IMG/VR virus record: IMGVR_UViG_3300035490_000050
Location: 1 to 64,000 of that record
Length of the DNA: 64,000 nucleotides
DNA from: a virus
Reading direction: 5' to 3' (one strand)
This document shows, one piece after another, positions 4,883 to 46,644 of this stretch. Made by a program: the position numbers and the translations under genes. The stretch's first letter is position 1. The number at the start of each line of letters is the position of its first letter. Under the pieces are notes generated by a model, which saw nothing but the letters and a program-made list of their open reading frames with translations, made no database searches and was not told where the DNA came from.

Positions 4883-5293
4883 TTAGTTGCTTTCCTTGCC
4901 CGCTTTGAATCCCGTGCTCACTCCAGCTTTCCATGCAGCCTCTAGCGCCGTCTTCAGGTTCCACACGGCGATACTGTAGAAGTCGAGCGAGTCTGAATTC
5001 CGCATGTCAAGCGTTTTGATTCCCAGGTAATCCCGTGCGATCTGGTGAAGCAGCGCGTCCGGTGGAGTTTGCACGTTCGGCTTACTTGCGCCTTCACAGC
5101 CATACTCCGCCGCGTACCGTTCCACGTTTAGGAGTAGTTGCTCCCGTGTCGGATAGGACGCGCCGATACAGTGCATGTTATCTTTGTTTCCATCCTGCGC
5201 GTCGGACAGGTCAACGAATCGCCAGTCTCCAGGCGAATTCAACGTGAAACCTATTTCAGTGAATCGTGTTTTGTACAGCTTGCCGTGAATCAT
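4883..5293 (-). CDS. DUF6900-like domain protein
   Basis: C-terminal IARDYLGIKTLDMRNSDSLDFYSIAVWNLKTALEAAWKAG matches the remembered DUF6900 consensus. Confidence 0.7.
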   Translation of the reverse strand: MIHGKLYKTRFTEIGFTLNSPGDWRFVDLSDAQDGNKDNMHCIGASYPTREQLLLNVERYAAEYGCEGASKPNVQTPPDALLHQIARDYLGIKTLDMRNSDSLDFYSIAVWNLKTALEAAWKAGVSTGFKAGKESN

Positions 5294-5722: not shown

Positions 5723-5926
5723 TTAGTACAAGAGTTCTCTGCGCGTGTAATAGCCCCATTCCCCGCGCCGGACAATGACAAAGCGATCAGGAGCTAAGCA
5801 GTCAGAATCGGGACCGTGTACCGTGTAATTCTGTGCGATCTCTTTCGCTTCGGCCACAGAGTCAACGGGACCGATAATCTGGTACTCGCCGGACTCGCTC
5901 TCAACTACCAAAATTCCGTATTCCAT
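5723..5926 (-). CDS. Small hypothetical protein
   Basis: GGAGG RBS; bracketed by direct repeats. Confidence 0.65.
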   Translation of the reverse strand: MEYGILVVESESGEYQIIGPVDSVAEAKEIAQNYTVHGPDSDCLAPDRFVIVRRGEWGYYTRRELLY

Positions 5927-6290: not shown

Positions 6291-7442
6291 TCATCGGTCA
6301 ACGTAAACCACCTCACCAAACGGGGCAGTTGCGTCTTCAACAGTTGAAAGCCATAGAACAGGAATAGACGGGGGAATATCGGGGAAAGTACCGTCAAGGT
6401 CACTGATACAGACCGCGCAGACCGCTTGCCCGTCTAACTCTATCGCCTCAAGAGCGGGGATAAAAGACGTTCCACCTCCGCCTTGAGGTTTCCACGTCAA
6501 AGAATCCCCGCGCTCAAATCGGTCAATACTTGCAATCTCGGAATCAAAGTAATAGACCGTGACCGCAGCGGGATTGCACTCATCGATTACCGATTCAACG
6601 ATAGACCGCGCATAGGATAAACTTACCTCATCCACACTGCCCGAAGTGTCTACCATGATTGCGATCTCGCCCAGGGCTTTAGATTCCAGCGCGGGAAGAT
6701 AGAGACCTTGTGAAAGATACCGCGAGTTTGGGCGAGTCCATGAATAATCGCCCGTGCTACGCTCGGAGAAAAATCGGAGTAACAGAGACCTAACGTCCAA
6801 CTTAGGCCGTAATGCTTGCGACACTTGACGCGCAAGGCCAGCGGGCAATGTGCCTTGCATCTTTGCCTGCTGTAAAGCGCTGGCTGCTCTTTGTTTCCAT
6901 TCCTGCTCAGTTGGAGCGGGTTCCCCGTCACTATCGGGACCCGTAGGGGCATCCCGAACTTCCCCTAATGGGTCCGGGACACTTGGACCTTGACCCGCTG
7001 TATTCCCTTGCCCATTGCCCTGCCCGTTCGGGTCCGGGTTATCATCCTGTTGCGCGTGCGAGTAATGCCATTCCGCAGACTTGCCCTTTTCAGAGTCCGA
7101 AGGATACAAAGCACCTTCGGGCAAAGTGAAGCCGGATTCTCTCAGTTCTGAATTGATAGCCTTATCGCAGGCAACGTTCCACGGTTTAGGCTCACGTCCA
7201 TCACGTCTAAACGGATGACCCATTGCGCAATGCATCACCTCATGCGCAACTAGAGCGGTAATCTGCTCATGCGGCAAGGATTCAATGAATGTAGGATTGT
7301 ACCCCAGTGTACGGCCATTGACCCATGCGGTCTCGCAAGTGTCATCCGCTTGCATTTTAAGCGATAAGGCGAGCGTACCAAAAAATGGCTGCTCTAGTAC
7401 TAGGCTAGTGCGCGCTGCGGTCATTTTGCTCTGTGCATTCAT
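6291..7442 (-). CDS. DUF2201-like HExxH metallopeptidase + vWA domain protein
   Basis: AHEVMH HExxH; DTSGS MIDAS; GGGGTSF; SDLDG; start moved to ATG 7442 (AAGGGG RBS). Confidence 0.88.
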   Translation of the reverse strand: MNAQSKMTAARTSLVLEQPFFGTLALSLKMQADDTCETAWVNGRTLGYNPTFIESLPHEQITALVAHEVMHCAMGHPFRRDGREPKPWNVACDKAINSELRESGFTLPEGALYPSDSEKGKSAEWHYSHAQQDDNPDPNGQGNGQGNTAGQGPSVPDPLGEVRDAPTGPDSDGEPAPTEQEWKQRAASALQQAKMQGTLPAGLARQVSQALRPKLDVRSLLLRFFSERSTGDYSWTRPNSRYLSQGLYLPALESKALGEIAIMVDTSGSVDEVSLSYARSIVESVIDECNPAAVTVYYFDSEIASIDRFERGDSLTWKPQGGGGTSFIPALEAIELDGQAVCAVCISDLDGTFPDIPPSIPVLWLSTVEDATAPFGEVVYVDR

Positions 7443-7524
7443 GTAATCCCCTTCCGGTATCTCGCCAGCACGATTAGTGCCTGATACCCTTCCCCGTTTG
7501 CCCATGAGCCCATGGGCAGGGTTA

Positions 7525-8421
7525 CTAGGCAAAAATGCCCTTGCCATAAGTGGCCGTCATCGCGTCAAGAATTGCCTGCGCCTCATTCGCCGTGCTAACG
7601 CGCACATCGGGATTATCGCGCAACGTTTGAGGATCACTTGCCGCAAGTATCTCAGTCTGCCTGCGCAAGGATTCAAGTGTCGAGTCATCCGTGAGATTCA
7701 AGCGGGTCAACACATCGCACAATTCCCGTGCGTTACCTATTAGCGAATCACGGAAGATAGCTTCTGGCTGCGCCAAACGTTCGTGAATCCGTGAGAGACA
7801 ATCGGCCAAACGTCTGACGGCATCCTGCTGAGCGTCTTTGAATGCTTCCGTGACCCGCTGTTCAGTCCGTGCCGCGATAGCGTTAATCTCCTCCGCCGCA
7901 ATAGTCACTCGAAAGTCGGTCCCTGCGGGAACGGGATTGTATTCCACTCCCCAAGAGTAACGTCCAGCGATGTCTGAGGGATAATCGGTCTCTTGAAACA
8001 TGCCATTCAAGACTTCCCTTGCTTGCTCACGATAAGCCGGGTAATCGGCGATAAAATCGGCGAGCAAAGAATCGGCATCATGGAACATTTTGCGCACCAT
8101 ATCGGTATATGCCTGATAATTCTTGACGGGGAGTAATCTCCATCCGTCATCGGACCATGCAAGAGTTTGCGCGTAATGCTTGACTCTCAAATCCGCAATG
8201 TGACCCGTTAACGCCTTGTACGCTGGACAATCACCCGGCAATAGGTGTTTATTGTAGCGTCCAGCGTCAAGAGTGGTATTGTGTGCCGCAGCGGTCTCTT
8301 GTGAAACCTTGCGGTCATACTTGCGAGCACTCCATGCGCTGATTCTCAGAGAGACTAGCATTGCCCTTGTATGCAAATCTGAAGCGGTCATTTTCTCACT
8401 CTCCCAAGTGAATTCCGGCAT
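7525..8421 (-). CDS. DUF3150-like protein (start possibly 8391)
   Basis: MLVSLRISAWSARKYDRKV...GRYNKHLL...W.DDGWRLLP...IFRDSLIGN; lies between AAA and vWA genes. Confidence 0.65.
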   Translation of the reverse strand: MPEFTWESEKMTASDLHTRAMLVSLRISAWSARKYDRKVSQETAAAHNTTLDAGRYNKHLLPGDCPAYKALTGHIADLRVKHYAQTLAWSDDGWRLLPVKNYQAYTDMVRKMFHDADSLLADFIADYPAYREQAREVLNGMFQETDYPSDIAGRYSWGVEYNPVPAGTDFRVTIAAEEINAIAARTEQRVTEAFKDAQQDAVRRLADCLSRIHERLAQPEAIFRDSLIGNARELCDVLTRLNLTDDSTLESLRRQTEILAASDPQTLRDNPDVRVSTANEAQAILDAMTATYGKGIFA

Positions 8422-8444: not shown

Positions 8445-9479
8445 CTATGAACGGCCTGAAATAAGCTGGCCCAAGGGACCAGAATTCAAGCGAACAAAGG
8501 AATCAGTGTATTGAATCTTTTCGTCACGGCGAATTGCGTCACGGATGAGGAGAACGGCGAATTCGCCCTTGCCCGCTTCAGTGTAGAGCCTATTCGCATA
8601 GGTCACAATGCGGGCAAAATTCTGATCGTTAGCGCGGGCAGCGAGTCCAACTGAGACCGCGTACAATTCACTGGGCTTGCTCGGAATTGTAGCCTTATCG
8701 GGATTCATGAGAATGGCGTCAAGGTTTACCAGACTCTTCACCATTGACCGGAAAGCAAGGTATTCAAGCGCTGCTCCTTCCCCTACACTCCCCGCCATCA
8801 CGGCGGATTCAATCACAGCGGGCAAGGAAAGAGACTCAATCTTAGCAAGATGCGCCCATGTACGGGGAACTGGAGAGTTTGTAAGGTCTGCCGTCGCTTC
8901 AAACTTGCAAAGCAATTCCGGCCTGAAACGTAGGAAAGCTATCAGGGTAGCGGGGATACCGTGCGAGAATGCCCAGTTGCACCACGAGTCAATATCGGGT
9001 TCCAATTCGACAATGGACACGAAACGGGATTTTACCGGCTCTAGAATGCCCGATACTCCCGCGCGGTCAATGCGCCGATTAGTGGCCGCAAGGAAAGTAA
9101 CGCAGTCCGGGAGTACATGGCCGTTGACCCGGCGGGCAAGGAATAGTTGCATACATGCGGCCTGCACAGACGGGGGAGCTTGCCCCAAGTCATCGAAAAA
9201 CCAGACAGTGGGTTTGGTTGCTTTCAATGCACGGGCAAAGTTCCCGAACGGCAGGAAAGTTGCTTCCGTTGCACCTTGATTACCCCATGGGAGACCTTTA
9301 AAGTCTGTAGGGTCACCCACTGCCGGGTGTTCCAAGATGAGGTCATTGGACAGTGACGCGGTGACGGATTCAACGGTATCAGTCTTGCCGATACCGGGCA
9401 TCCCTGTAATGAGTAAAGGCAAACGGGCAGGAATAGCTGCGGTGAGAATGGCTTGCAATTGTGACGGGTTAACGCTCAT
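8445..9479 (-). CDS. MoxR/CbbQ-like AAA+ ATPase
   Basis: Walker A GMPGIGKT, Walker B WFFDD, sensor AATN, SRF arginine finger, PRTW. Confidence 0.9.
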   Translation of the reverse strand: MSVNPSQLQAILTAAIPARLPLLITGMPGIGKTDTVESVTASLSNDLILEHPAVGDPTDFKGLPWGNQGATEATFLPFGNFARALKATKPTVWFFDDLGQAPPSVQAACMQLFLARRVNGHVLPDCVTFLAATNRRIDRAGVSGILEPVKSRFVSIVELEPDIDSWCNWAFSHGIPATLIAFLRFRPELLCKFEATADLTNSPVPRTWAHLAKIESLSLPAVIESAVMAGSVGEGAALEYLAFRSMVKSLVNLDAILMNPDKATIPSKPSELYAVSVGLAARANDQNFARIVTYANRLYTEAGKGEFAVLLIRDAIRRDEKIQYTDSFVRLNSGPLGQLISGRS

Positions 9480-9518
9480 GTAATCCCCTTTCGTATTGAA
9501 TTCAATCTTACATATACA

Positions 9519-11617: not shown

Positions 11618-11875
11618 ATGAGCGTCGCTAATCAATATATCACCGCAAATATCTGGCGCGGCGAACTGGATTATTGTTCTGTTGGCGATGTGCTGTACTG
11701 GGTGGAACCACTGGAAGATTACATAGTGAGTACAAAGCTGCGAAGCCAGTCTTTAGCGTCTGTAGCTGGCGTATTTGTGGATCAAGAGATAGTGCGTAGA
11801 GTGCTTGGCGAGTGCGGAACTATTAAAGCTATGGATGGGTATGAAGGGATTTTCGTTCTACAGAGGAATATATGA
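11618..11875 (+). CDS. Hypothetical protein
   Basis: GGGGAG RBS; ATGA overlap with next gene. Confidence 0.55.
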   Translation: MSVANQYITANIWRGELDYCSVGDVLYWVEPLEDYIVSTKLRSQSLASVAGVFVDQEIVRRVLGECGTIKAMDGYEGIFVLQRNI

Positions 11876-12195: not shown

Positions 12196-14536
12196 GCACA
12201 GTGAAGTGCGAGAGTTGCGATGGGACTGGGCAAGTAACGATTGTGCTCAAGGCTCGTTCGGTGGGAATTTCGACATTAGCATTAGGTGGCATGGGAAAGG
12301 TTCATTGCCATAGGTGCGGCGGTACAGGGCAGTTCAACGAGCATGACTTCGTGGACACCGGAAATAGAGATCGCCAATGCCGTGCATGTGGGGCGATAGA
12401 TTGCAGCACGATGGGTGAGTGGTGGTGCGGCGGGAGAAAATAATGCGCGGAACTATTTTTGAATACGATGGCCTTAGATTCAAGGCGCAGGACGATGAAA
12501 TATGTTCATTGCTTTCTGATGCTGCGATTTTCGAGAAAGCGGGAACTTGCAGCCTTAAAACGGCTATGAGAGTTGCCTTGGAATGTCAGAGGATAACGTT
12601 GGCTGATTTGCCGGTTCCCGTGGGGTGCGTATGATGGATAGGATAATTTTTCCACCAGACTTTCCGGGGAACGAAATCAATATACAGCGCCGACAGCTAT
12701 TGCGCGATGGGGTGCCTTGTAGCCATCCGGGGTGCCTGAAGCACGTTACGCATCCATGCGAGGGCTGTGGGCGCGTAGGAGGGCGTAGGGAGTGCCAGCA
12801 TGAGCGATTAAACGAAGATGGCATCTGCCGCGTCTGTGGGAAAGATAGGAGAGGAATCTGATGCGAGTGATATTCGTTTCAAAAGATGCACAGGAAAAAG
12901 ATAATGCTGACAACGAACGCTATCGTCAACAGGAAGATCGTCAGCGAGTGGAGCAATTTCGCCGTGACGACTTGGACCAAGAGAGAGGCGTTTGGAATGA
13001 GACACTGCAAGCCAGAATCGGGCAGGAGTGGTCTCTGTCGAAGGCTTTGGAAGATGCTGATAAGGCGCTTGCAGCCTATCGAGAGAGGTTCCAATGATGG
13101 GCGCTGACGAGAAGTTTGTTCGGGAGAATTGGGAGCATGTGAGGTCGTGGGTACGCGACCTTGATTCCTATGGGACTGACCAATTTAATGTCGCCTTATT
13201 CCTCAACGAAAAAGATGCGAAGTGGTGCGACAATCCTTTCAAGAGATGGCAAATGGATTTTGGGAAAGAGAAGGTAGTATGGAAATTAGCGGCGGAATTT
13301 ACGCGGGGGAGGATTGAAGAAATTCGGCTTCTTGAAGAAGAGATTTCGACGCAAGGAGAATTTTGTCAGCATGGCGACGAATGTGGACTTTGCGCTGTCG
13401 TAGCTCGCACGGTTGGACGTTTACAGGCGGCGCTGGCGGAATTAAAGAGGGGTATGAAATGAATCCTAAAACGCTAGAGGATATGATTGCTCACGTCAAA
13501 AAGTATCCGGGATGGACGATGTATCCGCCCGATATTGACGCTATCGGGAATCGTGTGGAAGTGGCGAAAAAGATTGCGAAAGAAACAGGGACTATTCTTG
13601 AATGGGATGTTTTCGGGAGTCCGCGATTTATGCCTACTGATTATAGGCAGCGGATGGACATCAAAGCGGGTTGGGAAAGGTGCGATTTGGACAGCAAGGA
13701 TTATGGAGCGCCGAAGGAGCCTGAATACAATCCTGAGACGGGCGAGGAATTAGAAGAGGGATGCTATATGATGGCTCACAATACTCCTGACGGCTTATGC
13801 GATCCGATTACTGGCTGTCCGGGTTGCGCTCAGGAGCGGAGACGAAGGGCGAGGGAGGGGAAATGAGCAAATCTATCTGGATTATTGAAGCAAGACGAAG
13901 AAATCCAAATGATCCTTGGGGGCCGTGGGAAGAGATGCGAACAGGACAGACCACTACCGCCTATCCATCGAAGCCTTTCACCGCAACTAACGACGAATCT
14001 GCATACCAGCGCCGCCCCGTAGAGTATAAGCGCATGGAACCAGAACCACCTAACCTTGTATTGCAAGAGACGCCGATGATATTCACTGTTCCAAAAGCAG
14101 GTCGCTATTGCATAGGAGCGGACTACGGACAGGCATCGGATGAGACAGTAGCGGCTTTGATGAGAATAGGAGAAGATGGGGAACCTGATGAATTGATTTC
14201 CATCCTTCGGCGCGATAAGGAAACTGGTAAATGGGAGCAGGAATGCCAGACGAAGTAACATGGCGTGTCAGTCCACAGGTATTCCACGATCTACACACGA
14301 TCATCGGCAATCATCTTACTGAAATGGCTTGGGATGAGGCTAGGACGCAACTAGACGGTATTCCTCGCACTGACGGTGCTGATGCAGCGGCGATGGAGAT
14401 TCGTGAGAAATATAATCTTAGTTACCTTCCTATCGGAACTCAGGTAAAGGTGATTGTGGACTACAAGATGGATGGGTACGACAAACCGGAGTATGGCAAG
14501 CAGTGCCAGCCGGGACCGGGGGAAAAGGGGGAGTGA
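12192..14536 (+). other. Eight coupled small hypothetical genes, several Cys-rich (12192-12443, 12443-12634, 12631-12861, 12861-13097, 13094-13462, 13459-13866, 13863-14258, 14243-14536)
   Basis: ATGA/TAATG/TGATG overlaps and purine-rich RBSs; CxxC motifs. Confidence 0.65.
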
Positions 14537-14970
14537 TGCTTCTTAATTACACAACCAAGGTAGCAAGCGCCAAAACAGTCTCGCAGATTCAAGAGATTCT
14601 TGGGGCTAAAGGTGCTTGCCATGTTTCAGTTGATTATCAGAGCGGCAAGGCGACAGCGGTCATATTCGGCCTGAATATCGGCAAGAACACCGTCCACTTC
14701 CGGCTTCCCTGCAACGTGCAGGGTGTGAGCGCCGCACTCAAGAAAGGCAGTCAGAGAAGCGGAATCTGGCGGGATATTCCTCAATGCGAACGTATTGCAT
14801 GGCGCATCGTCAAGGACTGGGTAGAGGCGCAGATGGCCCTTGTGGAAGCTCAACAGGCCGAGATCGCCGAAGTGTTCCTGCCGTATGCGGTTGCGCCGAA
14901 TGGAGAGACATTTTTCCAGCATTTCAAGAGCAATCAATTGGCGCTAGGGGCAGGAGAAAAGGGGGAGTGA
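14536..14970 (+). CDS. Conserved-type phage hypothetical protein
   Basis: NYTTKV...TVSQIQEIL...FRLP...AWRIVKDWVEAQ...EVFLPY, a pattern familiar from phage proteins. Confidence 0.7.
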   Translation: MLLNYTTKVASAKTVSQIQEILGAKGACHVSVDYQSGKATAVIFGLNIGKNTVHFRLPCNVQGVSAALKKGSQRSGIWRDIPQCERIAWRIVKDWVEAQMALVEAQQAEIAEVFLPYAVAPNGETFFQHFKSNQLALGAGEKGE

Positions 14971-16627
14971 TGGCAGTTAAGAAAACGAAAGCGAAGGATG
15001 GGGCAATAATCCCTAAAGTAGCAGAGAAGGTGAGCGCGGAACCTCTCTTCAAAAAAGGGGATTTCTGTTTCCACGGAGATATGCTGGTATGTGTCGAAGA
15101 GGGCATCTGGGTAGAGGAATTGACCTGCTTCCGATACCACATCTATTACACGGGCGGAACAAAGATGGAGCCATGCGCTGAGCCGTTTCATCTTGGCGGC
15201 GGCGGTTCTTTTTGGTGGTCAGAGAAAGAACTGACAGCGATTACCGATCCCGTCCTTCTGCTCCGCGCATCCTTAACCAAAGAATTAAAGCGCGTGGCAG
15301 ACGCGGAACAAGATATTCGTTACGCCAACCGCAAGATCGAATCGCTTCGGATTGCGCTTGAAACAGTAGTTCCCGCGCAAAAGAAACCGGAGGCGCCCCA
15401 TGCCTGAGTTGACAGCGCAGGAAGCAATCGAATTGGCGCAGGAAAAGTTTGGTGCGGGAACCTATGCGCTCGAAAAGGCGAACCGCTTTCCCCGCTATGT
15501 GATTGAGGATTGGCGTGGATGTGTCATTGGGCAAGGCTTATCCTACGAAAGCGCAATCGCAAACGCGGAGCAGTATGTAGAAATGAAATCGGAGGCACCC
15601 CATGAGTGAACTGACAGCAGCGCAGGAGCGGGAGTACGTCGAGAGCAAGTGGATGGGTGTGACCATCGAGTATAACAACTGCGGGATGGCGAACAGCTAT
15701 TGGTCGGTTACTACGCAAGATTGTTCCCGCTGGCGCGGCGCATCGAGGCCGAGAAGAAAGGGCAAGGCAATGAGAACTAAGTGCCAAAGATGTGGAGATG
15801 AATGCGAGGCATCTGATAGCACTAAGCTCTCCGCTCGCCCATTCAAACGTGCGCGTCAGGGCTTCTGCGCTCCCTGTGTAGTCTGCAACTTCTTCCAAGC
15901 GGACGGCGACCAAGGAATAGTTTTTTCTTTGCCACTCAATTTCGACCCTCAAGGGTTGAGGTTGGCGCATATTCAGAGACAGTTCGCTCGCATACTAGAG
16001 ATCGGCTGCTCAGAGTTGAGAGCGGAGCAGATCGACTGGGACAAGGTAATTGAGAAATGGCAAATCGCAGCGAAGAAAGGGAGCCATGAGCAAAAAGCCT
16101 AAAGTAGAGATTTGCGCTTACTGCGATCAGAAGATCACTCGCCAGAGGACACCACAGGGATTTCCCCGCTTTGCGTGGAAGGCCGAATCTCCCGGCGGAT
16201 GGTACTGCCCTCAAGCGGGCGGCGATTGCTGGCATAGCCCGAAACAAGAAAGGGAGCCATGAAAAGTAGCAGACTCAAAGGGCACGCGCTGAAATATGAC
16301 TGGGTTCCCAGTGGCGATTCGTTCTACCCTTATACTGCCCGCTATGGTTGCCGCTGCGGTCAGAATATGGATGAACCAGCAACAGCGAAAGAAGCCCGCG
16401 CATGGCACCGTGCGCACAAGGCCGAGGTGCTGGCCAAGATGGACAAAGTACTGGACTCTCTGACAGACCTGATGCAGGAGGTCGCAGACGAAGACCCTGA
16501 CTTCTGCGACCGGCTTGCGGCAGACAATGACCGCATGATGAAGGCCGCAGTCCTGCCCAGCGCGGCTAACCTGGACGCGGTAGCAGCCGAGCAGCGGGCT
16601 GCGGAGGCAAAGGAAAGCGCAGAATAA
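14970..16627 (+). other. Small hypothetical genes (14970-15407, 15400-15609, 15602-16102, 16086-16262, 16259-16627)
   Basis: Coupled ORFs with RBSs; Zn-finger-like motifs in several. Confidence 0.65.
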
Positions 16628-16665
16628 ACTTGACATATTCCTGCGCCGTATGAGAGAGTCTCTGT

Positions 16666-17310
16666 GTGAAGCCATACTACAGCGAAAAGGGAATTTTAAT
16701 ATATCACGCGGATTGGAGAGATGTTCCAATTGAACTACTGAAAGCGGATTTGCTTTTAACCGATTGCCCGTACGGGATCGGAGAGGCGAAGGGAAAGAAC
16801 AAGAGCCGAACAAAACTAGCGGTCGCCAAGGATTACGGAACGAGTGATTGGGATGATGAACCACCATCGGACTTTGATCTGATTCGCTTGAGGGACTTGA
16901 CGAAGTACCAAATCATCTTTGGCGGTAACTATTTTGTCCTTCCGCCTTCAAAGTGCTGGCTGGTTTGGGATAAGGTGAACGGGGCAAATGATTTTGCAGA
17001 CTGTGAGTTGGCATGGACGAATCTGGACAAAGCGGTGAGGATTTTCCACTACATGTGGAACGGAATGCTGAAAGAGAATCCAGAGTATCGAATGCATCCG
17101 ACTCAGAAGCCGCGAAATTTGTTTTCATGGTGTCTCACGCAAGTTCCCAGTGACGTTAGGAGCGTTCTTGATCCTTACGCTGGAGTTGGTACTACAGCGG
17201 TGTGCTGCAAGGCTGTAGGACTTAGTTGTATTTGCGTGGAGCGCGAAGAGAAGTATTGCGCCGATGCGGTTCACAGGTTGCAACAGGAATGCTTTGATTG
17301 GGAGGCGTGA
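16666..17310 (+). CDS. Beta-class N4-cytosine/N6-adenine DNA methyltransferase
   Basis: Motif IV TDCPYG, HPTQKP, motif I LDPYAGVGTT; GTG start. Confidence 0.88.
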   Translation: MKPYYSEKGILIYHADWRDVPIELLKADLLLTDCPYGIGEAKGKNKSRTKLAVAKDYGTSDWDDEPPSDFDLIRLRDLTKYQIIFGGNYFVLPPSKCWLVWDKVNGANDFADCELAWTNLDKAVRIFHYMWNGMLKENPEYRMHPTQKPRNLFSWCLTQVPSDVRSVLDPYAGVGTTAVCCKAVGLSCICVEREEKYCADAVHRLQQECFDWEA

Positions 17311-18051
17311 TGTACGGAACAGAAGATTTTCAAATGATGGTAATCAGGCGCTTGGAGGCCATTGAAGCTCGTCTTAATATCCCGACACGTTTAGGTTTGC
17401 ACCCTGAAACAGAAGAAGAGCGCATAGAACGAGAGCGGCAAGTGGATGAACTGGTAGAGGCCGCAGGAAGAAAGTTCAAGGAGTCAAACAATGTACCTAC
17501 ACTGTAAGAAATGCCTCACCAGTCGTTCAGAGGACGTGCTAGGAGCGCCCTGTAGGACCGAAGGATGCGATGGCATCATAGAAGAACAGCCAGCCTTCCA
17601 TACGCTCGTAGACACGCTTCCTGAGCCATTCTACTGCCGTCGCCGTGATGAGAGTTTTGTCGGTGCTTCCTTTCCCGGACCAGATCACTGGAATAAATTC
17701 AAATCAAACGGGGATCGCGTTTGCTCTTATTGCGGGTCGCTGCATTGGGAAGACATGCTTCGACTCGTCCATGAGTCCGCTGAAGCGCCAGAGGATGCGG
17801 ATTACAGTTCTACCGTGGAGATTGAGCCTAGCGACAAGAGTTACAAGGTTTATGTTCATCAACCTGGAGTTAGAAACGCGCACGAGGGAGGAACAAAATT
17901 CTATATGCAACATGTGCCTCGCGGTAACGATGGAAAAATTATGGTCACACAGGATCAACAAGAAGAATACGCAAAAGCAGTCAAAATGTCAAGGAAACGA
18001 TTCAATCAATACTTGGCAAAAACCTATCCACCGGGAAGGATAGGAAACTGA
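17310..18051 (+). other. Two hypothetical genes (17310-17507; 17491-18051, Cys-rich, CSYCGSLH)
   Basis: GGAGG/AGGAG RBSs, coupled. Confidence 0.6.
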
Positions 18052-26496: not shown

Positions 26497-28647
26497 ATGT
26501 ATAGCCCAAAGATCATCGAACAAAATCTAAACTTTTTTGCCGCAAAAGAAGGGTGGATGCCGACCCATCACACCTTCAATGAAGTTGTAGAGTTCACGAA
26601 TTACATTAAGTCTATAACCACCCTAGCAAGCAATTCCAAAGGCGCATGGATCGATAAGGTAGCTCCCCTCACCGACAAGAGACGTGCGGAGATACGACGC
26701 TGGATATTGAATGAGCAGGTACTCTGCTCTCTCTCTTACCACTACTGGCGTGATAATTACGCTTATTGCGTTGACGAAGGTGGGCAGATTAAGAAGTTCA
26801 AAAATAGGAGATCGCAAGACGTTTTCGATTCGATTGTTGCTGAGTTAGAAGAGAAACAGGCGGGTATACAGATTTTATGTCTGAAAGCCCGCCAAATCGG
26901 GATCACGTCTCTCGTAGCTTTGTACTTCATGCACAGGATGCTTTTTGTACCTAACGTCTTAGCTGTTATGGCGTCCGTACAAAAGGAAAAGTCAGAAGAG
27001 ATTGAGGTAAAACTAAACACAGCATACGACATGTGTCCGTTTTGGTTGATTCCTCCAAGGACTCCGAAGAGAGGATTTTCAAACGGATCACGTCTCAATA
27101 TTGAATCCGGTATGCAGCCGAAAGGTATTGCACAAGGAAAGAGTCCTACCTTAATCCACATCTCAGAGCTTTCTCTTATCCCTAATCCTCACAACACTAT
27201 TGAGGAAGGATTGCTACCTGCTACTCACCCGACGAAAAACCTATTTATGGTATTCGAGAGTACAGGATCGGGAAACGTTGGATGGTTTGCTGATTTCTGG
27301 AGATCGCAGAAAGAAAAGTGGCCTCTAAATACAGGAAGAATGTGCCCTATATTCCTATCGTGGCCTCTAGCAACCGATCTTTATCCTGAAGCTGATTGGA
27401 TGAGGCAGCACCCTGTCCCGGCAGGATTCTATGAGAGACGCCTAGACGCAACGAAGGCTCATATAACACGCTGCGAGTCGTACATTAGAAACACCCCATA
27501 TCTAGCCAAAGTTGTAGGTTCGGATTATCGTGTTCCAATCGAACAGCAGTATTGGTGGGAAATTGAGTATGCTCAGGCAAAGGAAAGACATTCATTACAG
27601 CAGCACGCTGCACGTTTACCTGCCGATGACTTTGAGGCTTTAACCGGAGTACATGATAGTGTCTTTGACCAAGAGACAATCATGGAACTGGAAGACGATA
27701 TTTACGAGATTAAGAGTGATGGGAAAAAGGTCCGCAAAGAACCATTCCACGCCTATGCGATCACAGGACATTCCATTTTAGAAGAGTTCGATCCAAGTGA
27801 ATCTCAAATAGACTACAGCAAAGAAGTCATTCACTTAACCCATAAATCAAATCGAGATGAACGATACGATTGGGAACTTGTTCCTTTGCTTCCGATAGAC
27901 GAAGAAACCGAAAGCTATACATTCGACAGGCTTCTTGTTTATGAGCCTCCGCAAAGAGGAGCTTTGTATAGCTGTGGAGTCGATACTGCGCACGGTCTAG
28001 GTCACGAGGATGAGGATAGATTCTGCGCATCCATGACAAGAGTTTCAAGCGGATCGGGTTGCGATTTTCAAGCCGCAGAGCTTACATCTTTGAGATTCAG
28101 CCCCGCGCAAGCAGTTCCTTTCCTAGCGGCTATGGCGACGTGGTACGGACAAGTATCTGGACATTATAGGGGAGTGAAGTTCTCAATCGAACAGGTCGAA
28201 GGACCAGGAGATACCTGCCAGAACCAATTAAAGATTATGGGTTTCAACTGGCACCATACTCCAGGAAGGCTAGATGGTAAGAAAGTAAAGGACGAAAACA
28301 AGCATCGGGAAGGATGGTATTCCAACAAAGTCACTGTACCTATTTTGATGGATCGATTTATTGAGGCTGTAAATGGAGGTTGGTACGTTCCTTACTCCAA
28401 GTGGCTGATAGAGGAGTTGAAGACTCTTGAGCGCCATACGAAAGACGGCGGAAGAGACGTTATGACGCACCAAAAGAACAAGCATGACGACAGGATACGT
28501 GCTGCTGCACAGAGCTATTTGAACTGCCATACTTACGATGATCTATCCGCACGGTCGCAAAAGAGGTACAATGTTCCAAGCAAGAAGAAAACAGACCCCA
28601 ATAAGGGTAGGTGTATGTCGAACACATTCTCAGTTGGAGATTGGTAG
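26497..28647 (+). CDS. terL: Terminase large subunit
   Basis: Walker A LKARQIGITS, Walker B IHISE, FEST coupling motif, nuclease GVDTAHG and HDDRI. Confidence 0.92.
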   Translation: MYSPKIIEQNLNFFAAKEGWMPTHHTFNEVVEFTNYIKSITTLASNSKGAWIDKVAPLTDKRRAEIRRWILNEQVLCSLSYHYWRDNYAYCVDEGGQIKKFKNRRSQDVFDSIVAELEEKQAGIQILCLKARQIGITSLVALYFMHRMLFVPNVLAVMASVQKEKSEEIEVKLNTAYDMCPFWLIPPRTPKRGFSNGSRLNIESGMQPKGIAQGKSPTLIHISELSLIPNPHNTIEEGLLPATHPTKNLFMVFESTGSGNVGWFADFWRSQKEKWPLNTGRMCPIFLSWPLATDLYPEADWMRQHPVPAGFYERRLDATKAHITRCESYIRNTPYLAKVVGSDYRVPIEQQYWWEIEYAQAKERHSLQQHAARLPADDFEALTGVHDSVFDQETIMELEDDIYEIKSDGKKVRKEPFHAYAITGHSILEEFDPSESQIDYSKEVIHLTHKSNRDERYDWELVPLLPIDEETESYTFDRLLVYEPPQRGALYSCGVDTAHGLGHEDEDRFCASMTRVSSGSGCDFQAAELTSLRFSPAQAVPFLAAMATWYGQVSGHYRGVKFSIEQVEGPGDTCQNQLKIMGFNWHHTPGRLDGKKVKDENKHREGWYSNKVTVPILMDRFIEAVNGGWYVPYSKWLIEELKTLERHTKDGGRDVMTHQKNKHDDRIRAAAQSYLNCHTYDDLSARSQKRYNVPSKKKTDPNKGRCMSNTFSVGDW

Positions 28648-46137: not shown

Positions 46138-46272
46138 ATGAGTACCAAGGTTGTCAGATTCGAGCCGGAACTTCACGCCAGAATGAAGGCGCGGGCGGCT
46201 GTCTGCCAGATGACCATCAAGGGCTGGTTGAAGGCGCTGATCGAGGTCGAACTCAAGCGGGAGCCGAAATGA
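46138..46272 (+). CDS. Ribbon-helix-helix (Arc/HicB-like) DNA-binding microprotein (44 aa, not in ORF track)
   Basis: MSTKVVRFEPELHARMKARAAVCQMTIKGWLKALIEVELKREPK. Confidence 0.7.
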   Translation: MSTKVVRFEPELHARMKARAAVCQMTIKGWLKALIEVELKREPK

Positions 46273-46487
46273 GCGTCTGTTACATTGCCGCCCCGTTCAT
46301 TCCTTGGTGGGATGAGGCTGAAACAGGACCAGCCCCATTATGTGAAAGATGCGGGGCCGCGATGGTGCGTTTCCCAACACCTACAGACGCACTTCCAGAG
46401 AACACGCCTCCATTGGGTTGGCGTCCTGGCTGGAAATGCCTCTCTTGCGATAATTACCGCGGCGACGAACTCACGGAGCCGCGATGA
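46269..46487 (+). CDS. Zn-ribbon protein
   Basis: CERCGAAM...WKCLSC. Confidence 0.55.
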   Translation: MSVCYIAAPFIPWWDEAETGPAPLCERCGAAMVRFPTPTDALPENTPPLGWRPGWKCLSCDNYRGDELTEPR

Positions 46488-46515
46488 TGCCTGTCGAGCG
46501 CGGGAAGGAGCCGAA

Positions 46516-46644
46516 ATGAGCCTGACCTTTTGCATTGTCGGTATCGCGCTGGGCTTTGCGCTTATCATAGCGGGCCTATTTGCAGCCTTTATAGGCGTGG
46601 GAATGCTCCTGGCATGGGCGGAGCGGAAGGAGAACGGAAGATGA
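46516..46644 (+). CDS. Small membrane peptide
   Basis: AAGGAG RBS; single long hydrophobic stretch. Confidence 0.55.
   Translation: MSLTFCIVGIALGFALIIAGLFAAFIGVGMLLAWAERKENGR

Follow-up and report, generated by a model that had tools for sequence, protein, structure and literature searches.

Duplicated stop/start junctions around small genes in the accessory operon of a new 136-kb phage

The stretch analysed here, hereafter the window, comprises positions 1 to 64,000 of the IMG/VR virus record IMGVR_UViG_3300035490_000050 and is thus the first 64 kb of a new peat-soil phage genome held in a single record of 136,454 bp. Three successive loci in 1.8 kb, all inside a long operon whose small accessory genes are translationally coupled, carry direct repeats that lie over ribosome sites and start codons and bracket individual genes. 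We find that these repeats are duplicated stop/Shine-Dalgarno (SD)/start junctions, with an exact core of 17 nt and a decaying similarity of up to about 40 nt, and that a related virus has a single junction where the window has two genes of the third locus. The explanation we hold to be probable is that general short-homology recombination at gene boundaries duplicates the junction, and the repeats would then mark genes that have been swapped in or out.

Repeat pairs at three gene junctions

A reading of the sequence alone had described three pair-specific repeats over the ribosome-binding sites and starts of this region, and both our inspection of the sequence and a repeat search confirm their coordinates, the open reading frames (ORFs) that they bracket and the similar ends of the neighbouring proteins (GEKGE/GEKGE for genes W and X, EAPHA/EAPHE for genes Y and Z). 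All features of the three loci lie on the + strand, and an overlap of stop and start is present at all junctions. In the first pair, GAAAAGGGGGAGTGATG occurs at 14522-14538 and 14956-14972 with 17 of 17 positions identical, and the likeness extends over 43 nt at 72% identity (14496-14538 against 14930-14972). Here, the first copy of the junction (J1) holds the tail of W (14243-14536, with an alternative ATG at 14231), an SD site, a TGATG stop/start overlap and the start of the bracketed gene X (14536-14970), and the second copy holds the native tail of X (...LALGAGE), the SD/TGATG and the start of Y (14970-15407), a near-orphan found in one cluster of near-identical proteins.

The second pair, at 15383-15402 and 15585-15604, is identical at 18 of 20 positions and can be extended to 38 nt at 82% identity (31/38; 15379-15416 against 15581-15618), so that the likeness reaches into the first codons of genes Z and V (MPELTAQE and MSELTAAQE). 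The first copy of this junction (J2, 15379-15416) consists of the Y tail (..KKPEAPHA and stop), an SD site, the ATG and the first codons of Z (15400-15609, 69 residues, zero family matches), and the second (15581-15618) of the Z tail (..MKSEAPHE and stop), an SD site, the ATG and the first codons of V. Only the first 41 codons of V are present (15602-15724); the gene, which encodes 170 residues in the close relative L001, is cut at a recombination joint near 15724 and continues in frame.

At the third locus, AAGAAAGGGAGCCATGA is found at 16073-16089 and 16246-16262, again with 17 of 17 positions identical, and a third, partial copy lies at 15748-15762, ahead of an internal ATG at 15770. This junction (J3) is accordingly present in triplicate. 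Copy A (15735-15772) begins with what remains of the tail of a lost upstream gene (GCGGCGCATCGAGGCCG), followed by AAGAAAGGG and a different spacer before the ATG at 15770, which opens g15770 (15770-16102), a CxxC protein of 110 residues with the end extension IAAKKGSHEQKA. Copy B spans 16061-16089 with its exact core at 16073-16089, and copy C has its exact core at 16246-16262; between B and C lies gene U (16086-16262), which encodes a zinc-ribbon-like protein of 58 residues, and beyond C lies g16259 (16259-16627). The two upstream genes translate the repeat in different frames (KKGSHE in one, QEREP and stop in the other), so the likeness lies in the DNA and not in the protein. The ORF 15602-16102 as a whole comprises, in frame, the 41 V codons, some 45 nt containing what is left of the lost gene's tail, and the entire g15770.

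To gauge chance, exact in-register runs within -25 to +3 of the start codons were counted for all gene pairs, the 251 genes of the whole 136-kb genome being those called by a simple program of our own that relies on codon usage and SD sites, with one manual correction (16259-16627 in place of two split calls). Runs of at least 12 nt were shared by 3/220 adjacent same-strand pairs and by 4/31,155 others, and runs of at least 16 nt by 2/220 and 0/31,155, respectively. When an offset of up to 6 nt was allowed, runs of at least 14 nt occurred in 3/220 adjacent pairs, in 1/415 pairs two to three genes apart and in 0/30,740 pairs that are further apart or on opposite strands (Fisher p = 3.5e-7). Adjacent translation-initiation regions are thus far more alike than non-adjacent ones, a comparison that the sequence-only reading had proposed as a check. 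Moreover, the highest identity over 25 nt among the 31,375 pairs belongs to the starts at 103934 and 105352 (20/25), and pairs 2 and 1 come next (19/25 each). Start-region likeness is therefore local and real, and the effect is not confined to the 1.8 kb of the three loci.

Other start regions with shared stretches were noted in passing. The 103934/105352 case, which lies beyond the window on the - strand (genome positions 103934-105558), has an identity of roughly 80% over some 45 nt ahead of the two starts (genes 105352-105513 and 103934-104314); its repeat encloses two genes, the pair itself being two genes apart. Stretches of 13-15 nt are shared by neighbouring starts in three further places, with GGAGCCGAAATGAGC before 46269 and 46516 (window 46254-46274 and 46501-46521) and ACGGAGGTTGAC before 114831 and 115289 (genome 114816-115640). 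In the third, on the - strand, GGGGATTACATGA precedes both a DUF2201 gene (6291-7442) and an ATPase gene (8445-9479), at 7443-7460 and 9480-9497, these being two genes apart. The relative L001 has a start-region pair of its own at 5212-5234 and 5817-5839 (19/23 identical, 605 nt apart, both ending in ATG).

The pattern recurs around homologs of X. This gene belongs to phrog_17260, a large phage family of unknown function with at least 495 proteins of about 140-150 residues from many phage contigs; an AlphaFold model of X is confident, with a pLDDT (predicted local distance difference test) of 86.5, and a Foldseek search of it against the PDB gave zero matches at E <= 0.001; X could not be recognised as a nuclease. 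We surveyed 44 of 80 fetched X-family loci, having dropped those without a called downstream gene, with X shorter than 120 codons or too near the locus end, or with over 25 nt between the X stop and the start that follows, as well as duplicates. In 4 of these 44 loci the starts of X and of the next gene have at least 12 nt in common, against 0/1,860 cross-locus pairs (Fisher p = 2.5e-7). The window's own type accounts for one of these four; in unrelated X-family phages the pattern is found with other sequences. In addition, G001, a complete genome of 134,250 bp and a distant relative (terminase 56% identical), encodes an X that is 84% identical, with the homology confined to 14527-14959 and with different neighbours. 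X is, then, a module found in other contexts in other phages.

For locus 1, the protein families permit a comparison of the tails. The end of X (...QLALGAGE) is native to its family (495 hits, 36 aligned). Proteins of the W family end in ...KPEY plus zero to eight residues, and the 13-residue extension of the window's W (GKQCQPGPGEKGE) is absent from 8 aligned family representatives (the 698-aa multi-match protein P0128 having been left out) and from the W homologs of seven metagenome loci (L106-L112), in which at least five different genes come after W. An extension that ends like X is found only in the window type (L001, L104 and L105). Judged by these alignments, W carries a non-native tail. 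In the 26 nt upstream, the W extension matches the X tail in register at 14 positions, a value reached by 73/31,375 random pairs (0.23%, p = 0.0023). As a separate observation on this gene, P0125, an 80-aa protein from another metagenome, has about 37 first residues that are U-like and about 42 last residues like the C-terminal half of W, and P0126 and P0127 combine this W-like half with N-termini of other kinds; the fusion of genes in frame seems to be frequent in this group of phages.

Empty form of locus 3 and mosaic joints

Four viral contigs contain the exact 17-mer of pair 3, and one of them, L113, is related to the window. In L113, a 154-codon ORF that ends in ...RRIEAAKKGSHD and a stop overlaps the start of a g16259 homolog, which follows directly on a single junction. 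On its left, this junction matches the flank of copy A (GCGGCGCATCGAGGCCG, 17/17), and on its right that of copy C (22/23), which in the window runs on as it does in L113; the core between them is that of copies B and C. Both g15770 and U are missing, and the flanks are joined through one AAGAAAGGG core. L113 is thus an empty site for locus 3 that covers the two genes together.

A similar form appears among contigs of four peat sequencing runs. In three of the four, a joint connects 15762 to 16402 with 147 other letters between, and in the window 148 nt separate the AAGAAAGG of copy C from 16402, so the joint fits the arrangement of L113. Its loose end upstream differs from L113, so it represents a further haplotype. 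Moreover, the tail of g15770 looks grafted. Two homologs, 65% and 54% identical, both (2/2) end in ...EKW[RT]L and are without IAAKKGSHEQKA, and this tail in the window resembles IEAAKKGSHD, the tail of the upstream gene in L113; the 3' end of g15770 thus carries a copy of the resident junction.

Comparison with a close relative in IMG/VR (L001/L002) reveals a mosaic. A block at 14242-15724 is 99.5% identical, with unrelated or more diverged DNA around it; its left edge falls at the start codon of W and its right edge inside V, and the ORF 15602-16102 is on this account a chimera of the start of V and what follows. Among the ends of homology blocks between the window and L001, 13/30 lie within 10 nt of a start codon, against 5.4% expected (p = 1.8e-9), the block ends being approximate as taken from BLAST and two starts having been added by hand. 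The remaining block ends include some inside genes. In the contigs of the four peat runs, a joint from 13857 to 14242 was seen in two and one from 15721 to 16601 in one; zero joints were found at 14522/14956, 15383/15585 or 16073/16246, rare variants being prone to drop out of contigs. Parts without cover in some runs (e.g. 15812-15995) were excluded from interpretation. Two islands of homology to L001, at 13417-13457 (41 nt, 93%) and 16585-16680 (96 nt, 86%), lie exactly on gene junctions, with gene bodies around them that are unrelated to L001; they look like conserved boundary sequences common to both genomes.

The close relative of W and Y, of which IMG/VR holds one, is also the only match in a search with the pair-2 pattern; it keeps the repeats of pairs 1 and 2 and offers no empty site. 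Searches with the conserved 5' end of g16259 and with the V of L001 gave nothing new. The expectation of the sequence-only reading that relatives would hold empty sites with one repeat copy and no gene is accordingly borne out at locus 3, by L113 and by contigs of three of the four runs, and not at pairs 1 and 2. Breakpoints at the repeats were foreseen as well, and here 13 of the 30 block ends agree in lying close to starts; others, such as that at 15724, fall inside genes.

Genomic setting and alternative explanations

Public runs with a stretch matching the window are peat, soil or wetland metagenomes, and a blastn search of 13000-17500 against 50,697 phage records gave zero matches. From about 10.9 to 26 kb, the + strand is occupied by small ORFs of unknown function that are tightly packed, with overlapping stops and starts. 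Named proteins are few by PHROGs and Pfam scans, and include the terminase at 26497, a portal protein and tail proteins. Between 10 and 18 kb, promoter-like and terminator-like matches are no more numerous than in shuffled sequence, and none lies at the repeats on the + strand; no Rfam family was matched in 10-20 kb. As an aside, the motif (G/A)AATTCA stands some 15-20 nt before the starts of 7525-8391 and 8445-9479 (- strand) and of 11618-11875 (+ strand), beside a divergent region, and may be a common regulatory motif of those three genes. The 64-136 kb part of the genome (loci L119-L122) encodes an IS1595-family transposase (72,944-73,906), a 1,078-aa protein with an ART-PolyVal domain, a glycosyltransferase cluster with UDP-galactopyranose mutase, adenylosuccinate synthetase, an RNA ligase, a C5 cytosine methylase, a Fic-domain protein, RusA and a small serine recombinase. 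The last lies at 129,140-129,874, which is 113 kb from the repeats, and HNH nucleases are also encoded elsewhere in the genome.

Of the alternatives to recombination at gene boundaries, the one that fares best, unlikely as we consider it, is that the repeats are translational signals, either coupling junctions or regulator sites, kept alike by function. Their position over the SD site and start codon, and the stop/start overlap at every junction, would suit this, and there is a precedent in the start-associated sequences (SAS) of Cluster K mycobacteriophages. These are conserved elements 3-7 bp before starts that contain the SD core and lie in the non-structural half of the genome, with one 13-bp consensus before many genes that is conserved across phages (Pope et al. 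2011, PMC3203893). The repeats described here are likewise proximal to starts and contain the SD site; unlike the SAS so described (PMC3203893), each sequence is common to neighbours only, with 0/30,740 distant pairs sharing at least 14 nt. Conservation of a signal also sits poorly with a likeness that reaches non-native protein tails and first codons, and with the presence/absence polymorphism at the repeats. The folding of the junction windows is ordinary (z from -1.9 to +1.6), and there is no Rfam match.

A dedicated cassette system akin to an integron, in which a site-specific recombinase would use the start repeats as att-like sites and move single-gene circles, seems to us very improbable; the sequence-only reading had likened the mechanism to an integron without attC sites. 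Direct repeats around single genes, a one-copy form at locus 3 and the serine recombinase in the genome speak for it, and the units do resemble integron cassettes in being promoterless single genes at a defined place that are expressed from upstream signals. However, the three repeats have no common core beyond a purine-rich SD and the ATG, they range from 17 to 43 nt and decay gradually into the coding tails of their neighbours, and unlike integron sites they copy the neighbours' own sequence. A search for inverted repeats revealed no site common to the cassette ends; attC-like candidates amounted to three weak pairs with no sequence in common and with folding z from -1.9 to +0.25. No tyrosine integrase such as IntI was recognised among the 87 window proteins (PHROGs) or in Pfam scans of 14 and of 53 larger proteins, the scans outside the window covering the larger proteins. 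In addition, the only recombinase seen is the distant one of the serine type, some breakpoints lie inside genes, and the same pattern is found with other sequences in unrelated X-family phages. For want of a common core, an attC-like hairpin and a tyrosine integrase in the scanned proteins, we reject the integron analogy; what stands of the original proposal is that the repeats are footprints or substrates of gene gain and loss at translation-initiation junctions, as upheld by the empty site in L113 and by the breakpoints. As regards the three inverted repeats themselves (14484-14631, 15369-15461 and 16053-16122), they are the only ones in 14.0-16.8 kb and straddle the starts of X, Z and U, with the left arm immediately before the first copy of the repeat and the right arm within the gene itself. 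Their folding z values are -1.9, -1.75 and +0.25, respectively, and with 14 such repeats per 15.5 kb their placement may be a coincidence.

Equally hard to credit are old tandem duplications, by which the neighbours would be diverged paralogs that are still alike at their start regions and ends. X and Y are of near-equal length (144 and 145 residues), and the opening 6 to 8 residues are common to Z and V. BLASTP comparisons, however, give E values of 1.2 for X/Y, 0.32 for Z/V (using the full-length V of L001) and 19 for U/g15770, and a second copy of X is present in 0/80 X-family loci, on which grounds tandem paralogy was ruled out; a perfect 17-nt core beside unrelated gene bodies would also be a misfit with uniform divergence.

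Chance resemblance of purine-rich ribosome sites can be set aside almost entirely, for even if the exact pair-1 17-mer turns up in 12 other viral contigs, all unrelated, which tells that such words are not rare in large collections, within the genome three adjacent pairs reach 14 nt and no distant pair does (p as given above).

Probable recombination at gene boundaries and its relation to known systems

Given that the similarity decays gradually and that no common site is found, we infer the action of general recombination enzymes. The order of gain and loss, a double-crossover geometry, possible circular intermediates and a selective filter for coupled translation are likewise inferred. In such a scheme, a gene body would recombine into an existing junction, between co-infecting relatives or between genome copies, by homologous, homeologous or microhomology-based exchange. 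If both crossovers were to fall on the same resident junction or, equivalently, if a template switch took place there, the newcomer would end up with a junction on each side. The product would be a perfect duplicated core with patchy similarity at its flanks, which is the pattern observed. The newcomer would thereby have its 3' end joined to a copy of the tail and ribosome site of the gene before it, and neither gene would lose its working start. Thereafter, the two copies could act as short homologies through which the gene is deleted again or exchanged between relatives, and selection for coupled translation would presumably retain those products in which both genes keep a ribosome site. The protein scan, which was not exhaustive, recognised no recombinase of the Red-beta, RecT, Erf or Sak type.

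Several points weigh against this account. Pairs 1 and 2 have yielded no empty site, skipping joint or circle, in contigs that drop rare variants. The geometry of pair 1 is unlike that of locus 3, in that the tail of X is native and the extension is on the upstream W; the likeness of that extension to the X tail rests on the 14/26 identity, and its local alignment to 80 X-family tails does not rise above shuffles. Among the four positive X-family loci, L051 may reflect two native tails, each with an SD site, that have converged, its tail possibly being YopX-like. Adjacent pairs show no excess in the distant relative G001 (0/152 at 12 nt or more), where pairs two to three genes apart give 3/304 against 7/18,265 for far pairs; that genome, with its terminase at 56%, is too distant for fine mapping of breakpoints. 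At locus 3, the difference may stem either from insertion in the window or from deletion in L113. Reliance on our own simple gene caller is a further caveat.

The closest described case is gene 68 of Island3, a Cluster I mycobacteriophage. Brujita lacks this gene, of which the last 18 residues and about 50 bp of DNA repeat the end of the gene upstream; general recombination, by intramolecular deletion or intermolecular insertion, is the authors' explanation, and they compare the arrangement with short sequences conserved at boundaries (Pope et al. 2011, PMC3029335). As in that account, a small gene that is present or absent between relatives is bracketed by direct repeats at the 3' ends of genes, the end of the bracketed gene resembles the end of the gene before it (g15770, with W/X and Y/Z also ending alike), and a relative without the gene has a single repeat (locus 3, for g15770 and U together). 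Set against gene 68 as there described, the phage analysed here has three consecutive loci within 1.8 kb, and others elsewhere in its genome; the cores, at 17 nt exact, are shorter and have the SD site and the overlapping stop/start at their centre; one locus has a triple junction that brackets two successive genes; and the excess is statistical, both within the genome and across 44 loci of another family.

The promoter-early stem-loop (PeSL) cassettes of T4-type phages, reportedly also the subject of Comeau et al. 2014 (PMC4122927), are another likeness. ORFans in hyperplastic regions lie between two copies of the element, and a relative has one copy and no gene, for which recombination between copies was proposed to excise or insert the gene with its expression signals; PeSLs are promoter-plus-terminator units of about 100 bp, of one family and found genome-wide, and mini-circles were detected (Arbiol et al. 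2010, PMC2839356). Unlike the PeSLs of that description, the element in the window is a translational junction inside an operon and is locus-specific, and no sigma-70-like promoter or stem-loop terminator is present at the repeats.

Short conserved boundary ('linker') sequences are reportedly a feature of lambdoid phages, in accounts ascribed to Susskind and Botstein and to Clark et al. Phage recombinases can join diverged sequences, leaving 'shoulders' of lower identity (Martinsohn et al. 2008, PMC2327257). Both linkers and homeologous recombination of this kind have their counterpart here, in mosaic joints at gene boundaries, short shared sequences that can guide exchange and patchy shoulders beside identical tracts. 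Lambdoid linkers, however, are defined between genomes, whereas the junction here is duplicated within one genome around single genes.

The process is one already described in other phages, and no new machine is revealed; the case is notable for how densely its three loci lie (within 1.8 kb), for the triple junction and for its statistics. In the literature that we searched, no published survey of adjacent start-region repeats was found, and PMC4378225 proved irrelevant. The phage offers a clean natural example, in filled and empty forms, of how small genes are gained and lost inside an operon without breaking translation, and the identity of adjacent against distant start regions is a simple statistic that could gauge the frequency of this route across phages. 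A bolder and, in our estimate, rather doubtful extension is that the stop/start junctions of coupled phage operons are self-propagating recombination linkers, which would make accessory operons cassette arrays that are independent of a recombinase. Every gain would copy the junction and so create both a new landing site and a substrate for excision, possibly with mini-circle intermediates moved by phage annealing proteins. If this were true, the linker mode would be general and measurable, at about 1-2% of adjacent pairs here and in 3-4 of 44 loci of an unrelated family. At either strength, the findings bear on the debate over whether phage mosaicism arises by recombination at boundary sequences or by purely illegitimate recombination.

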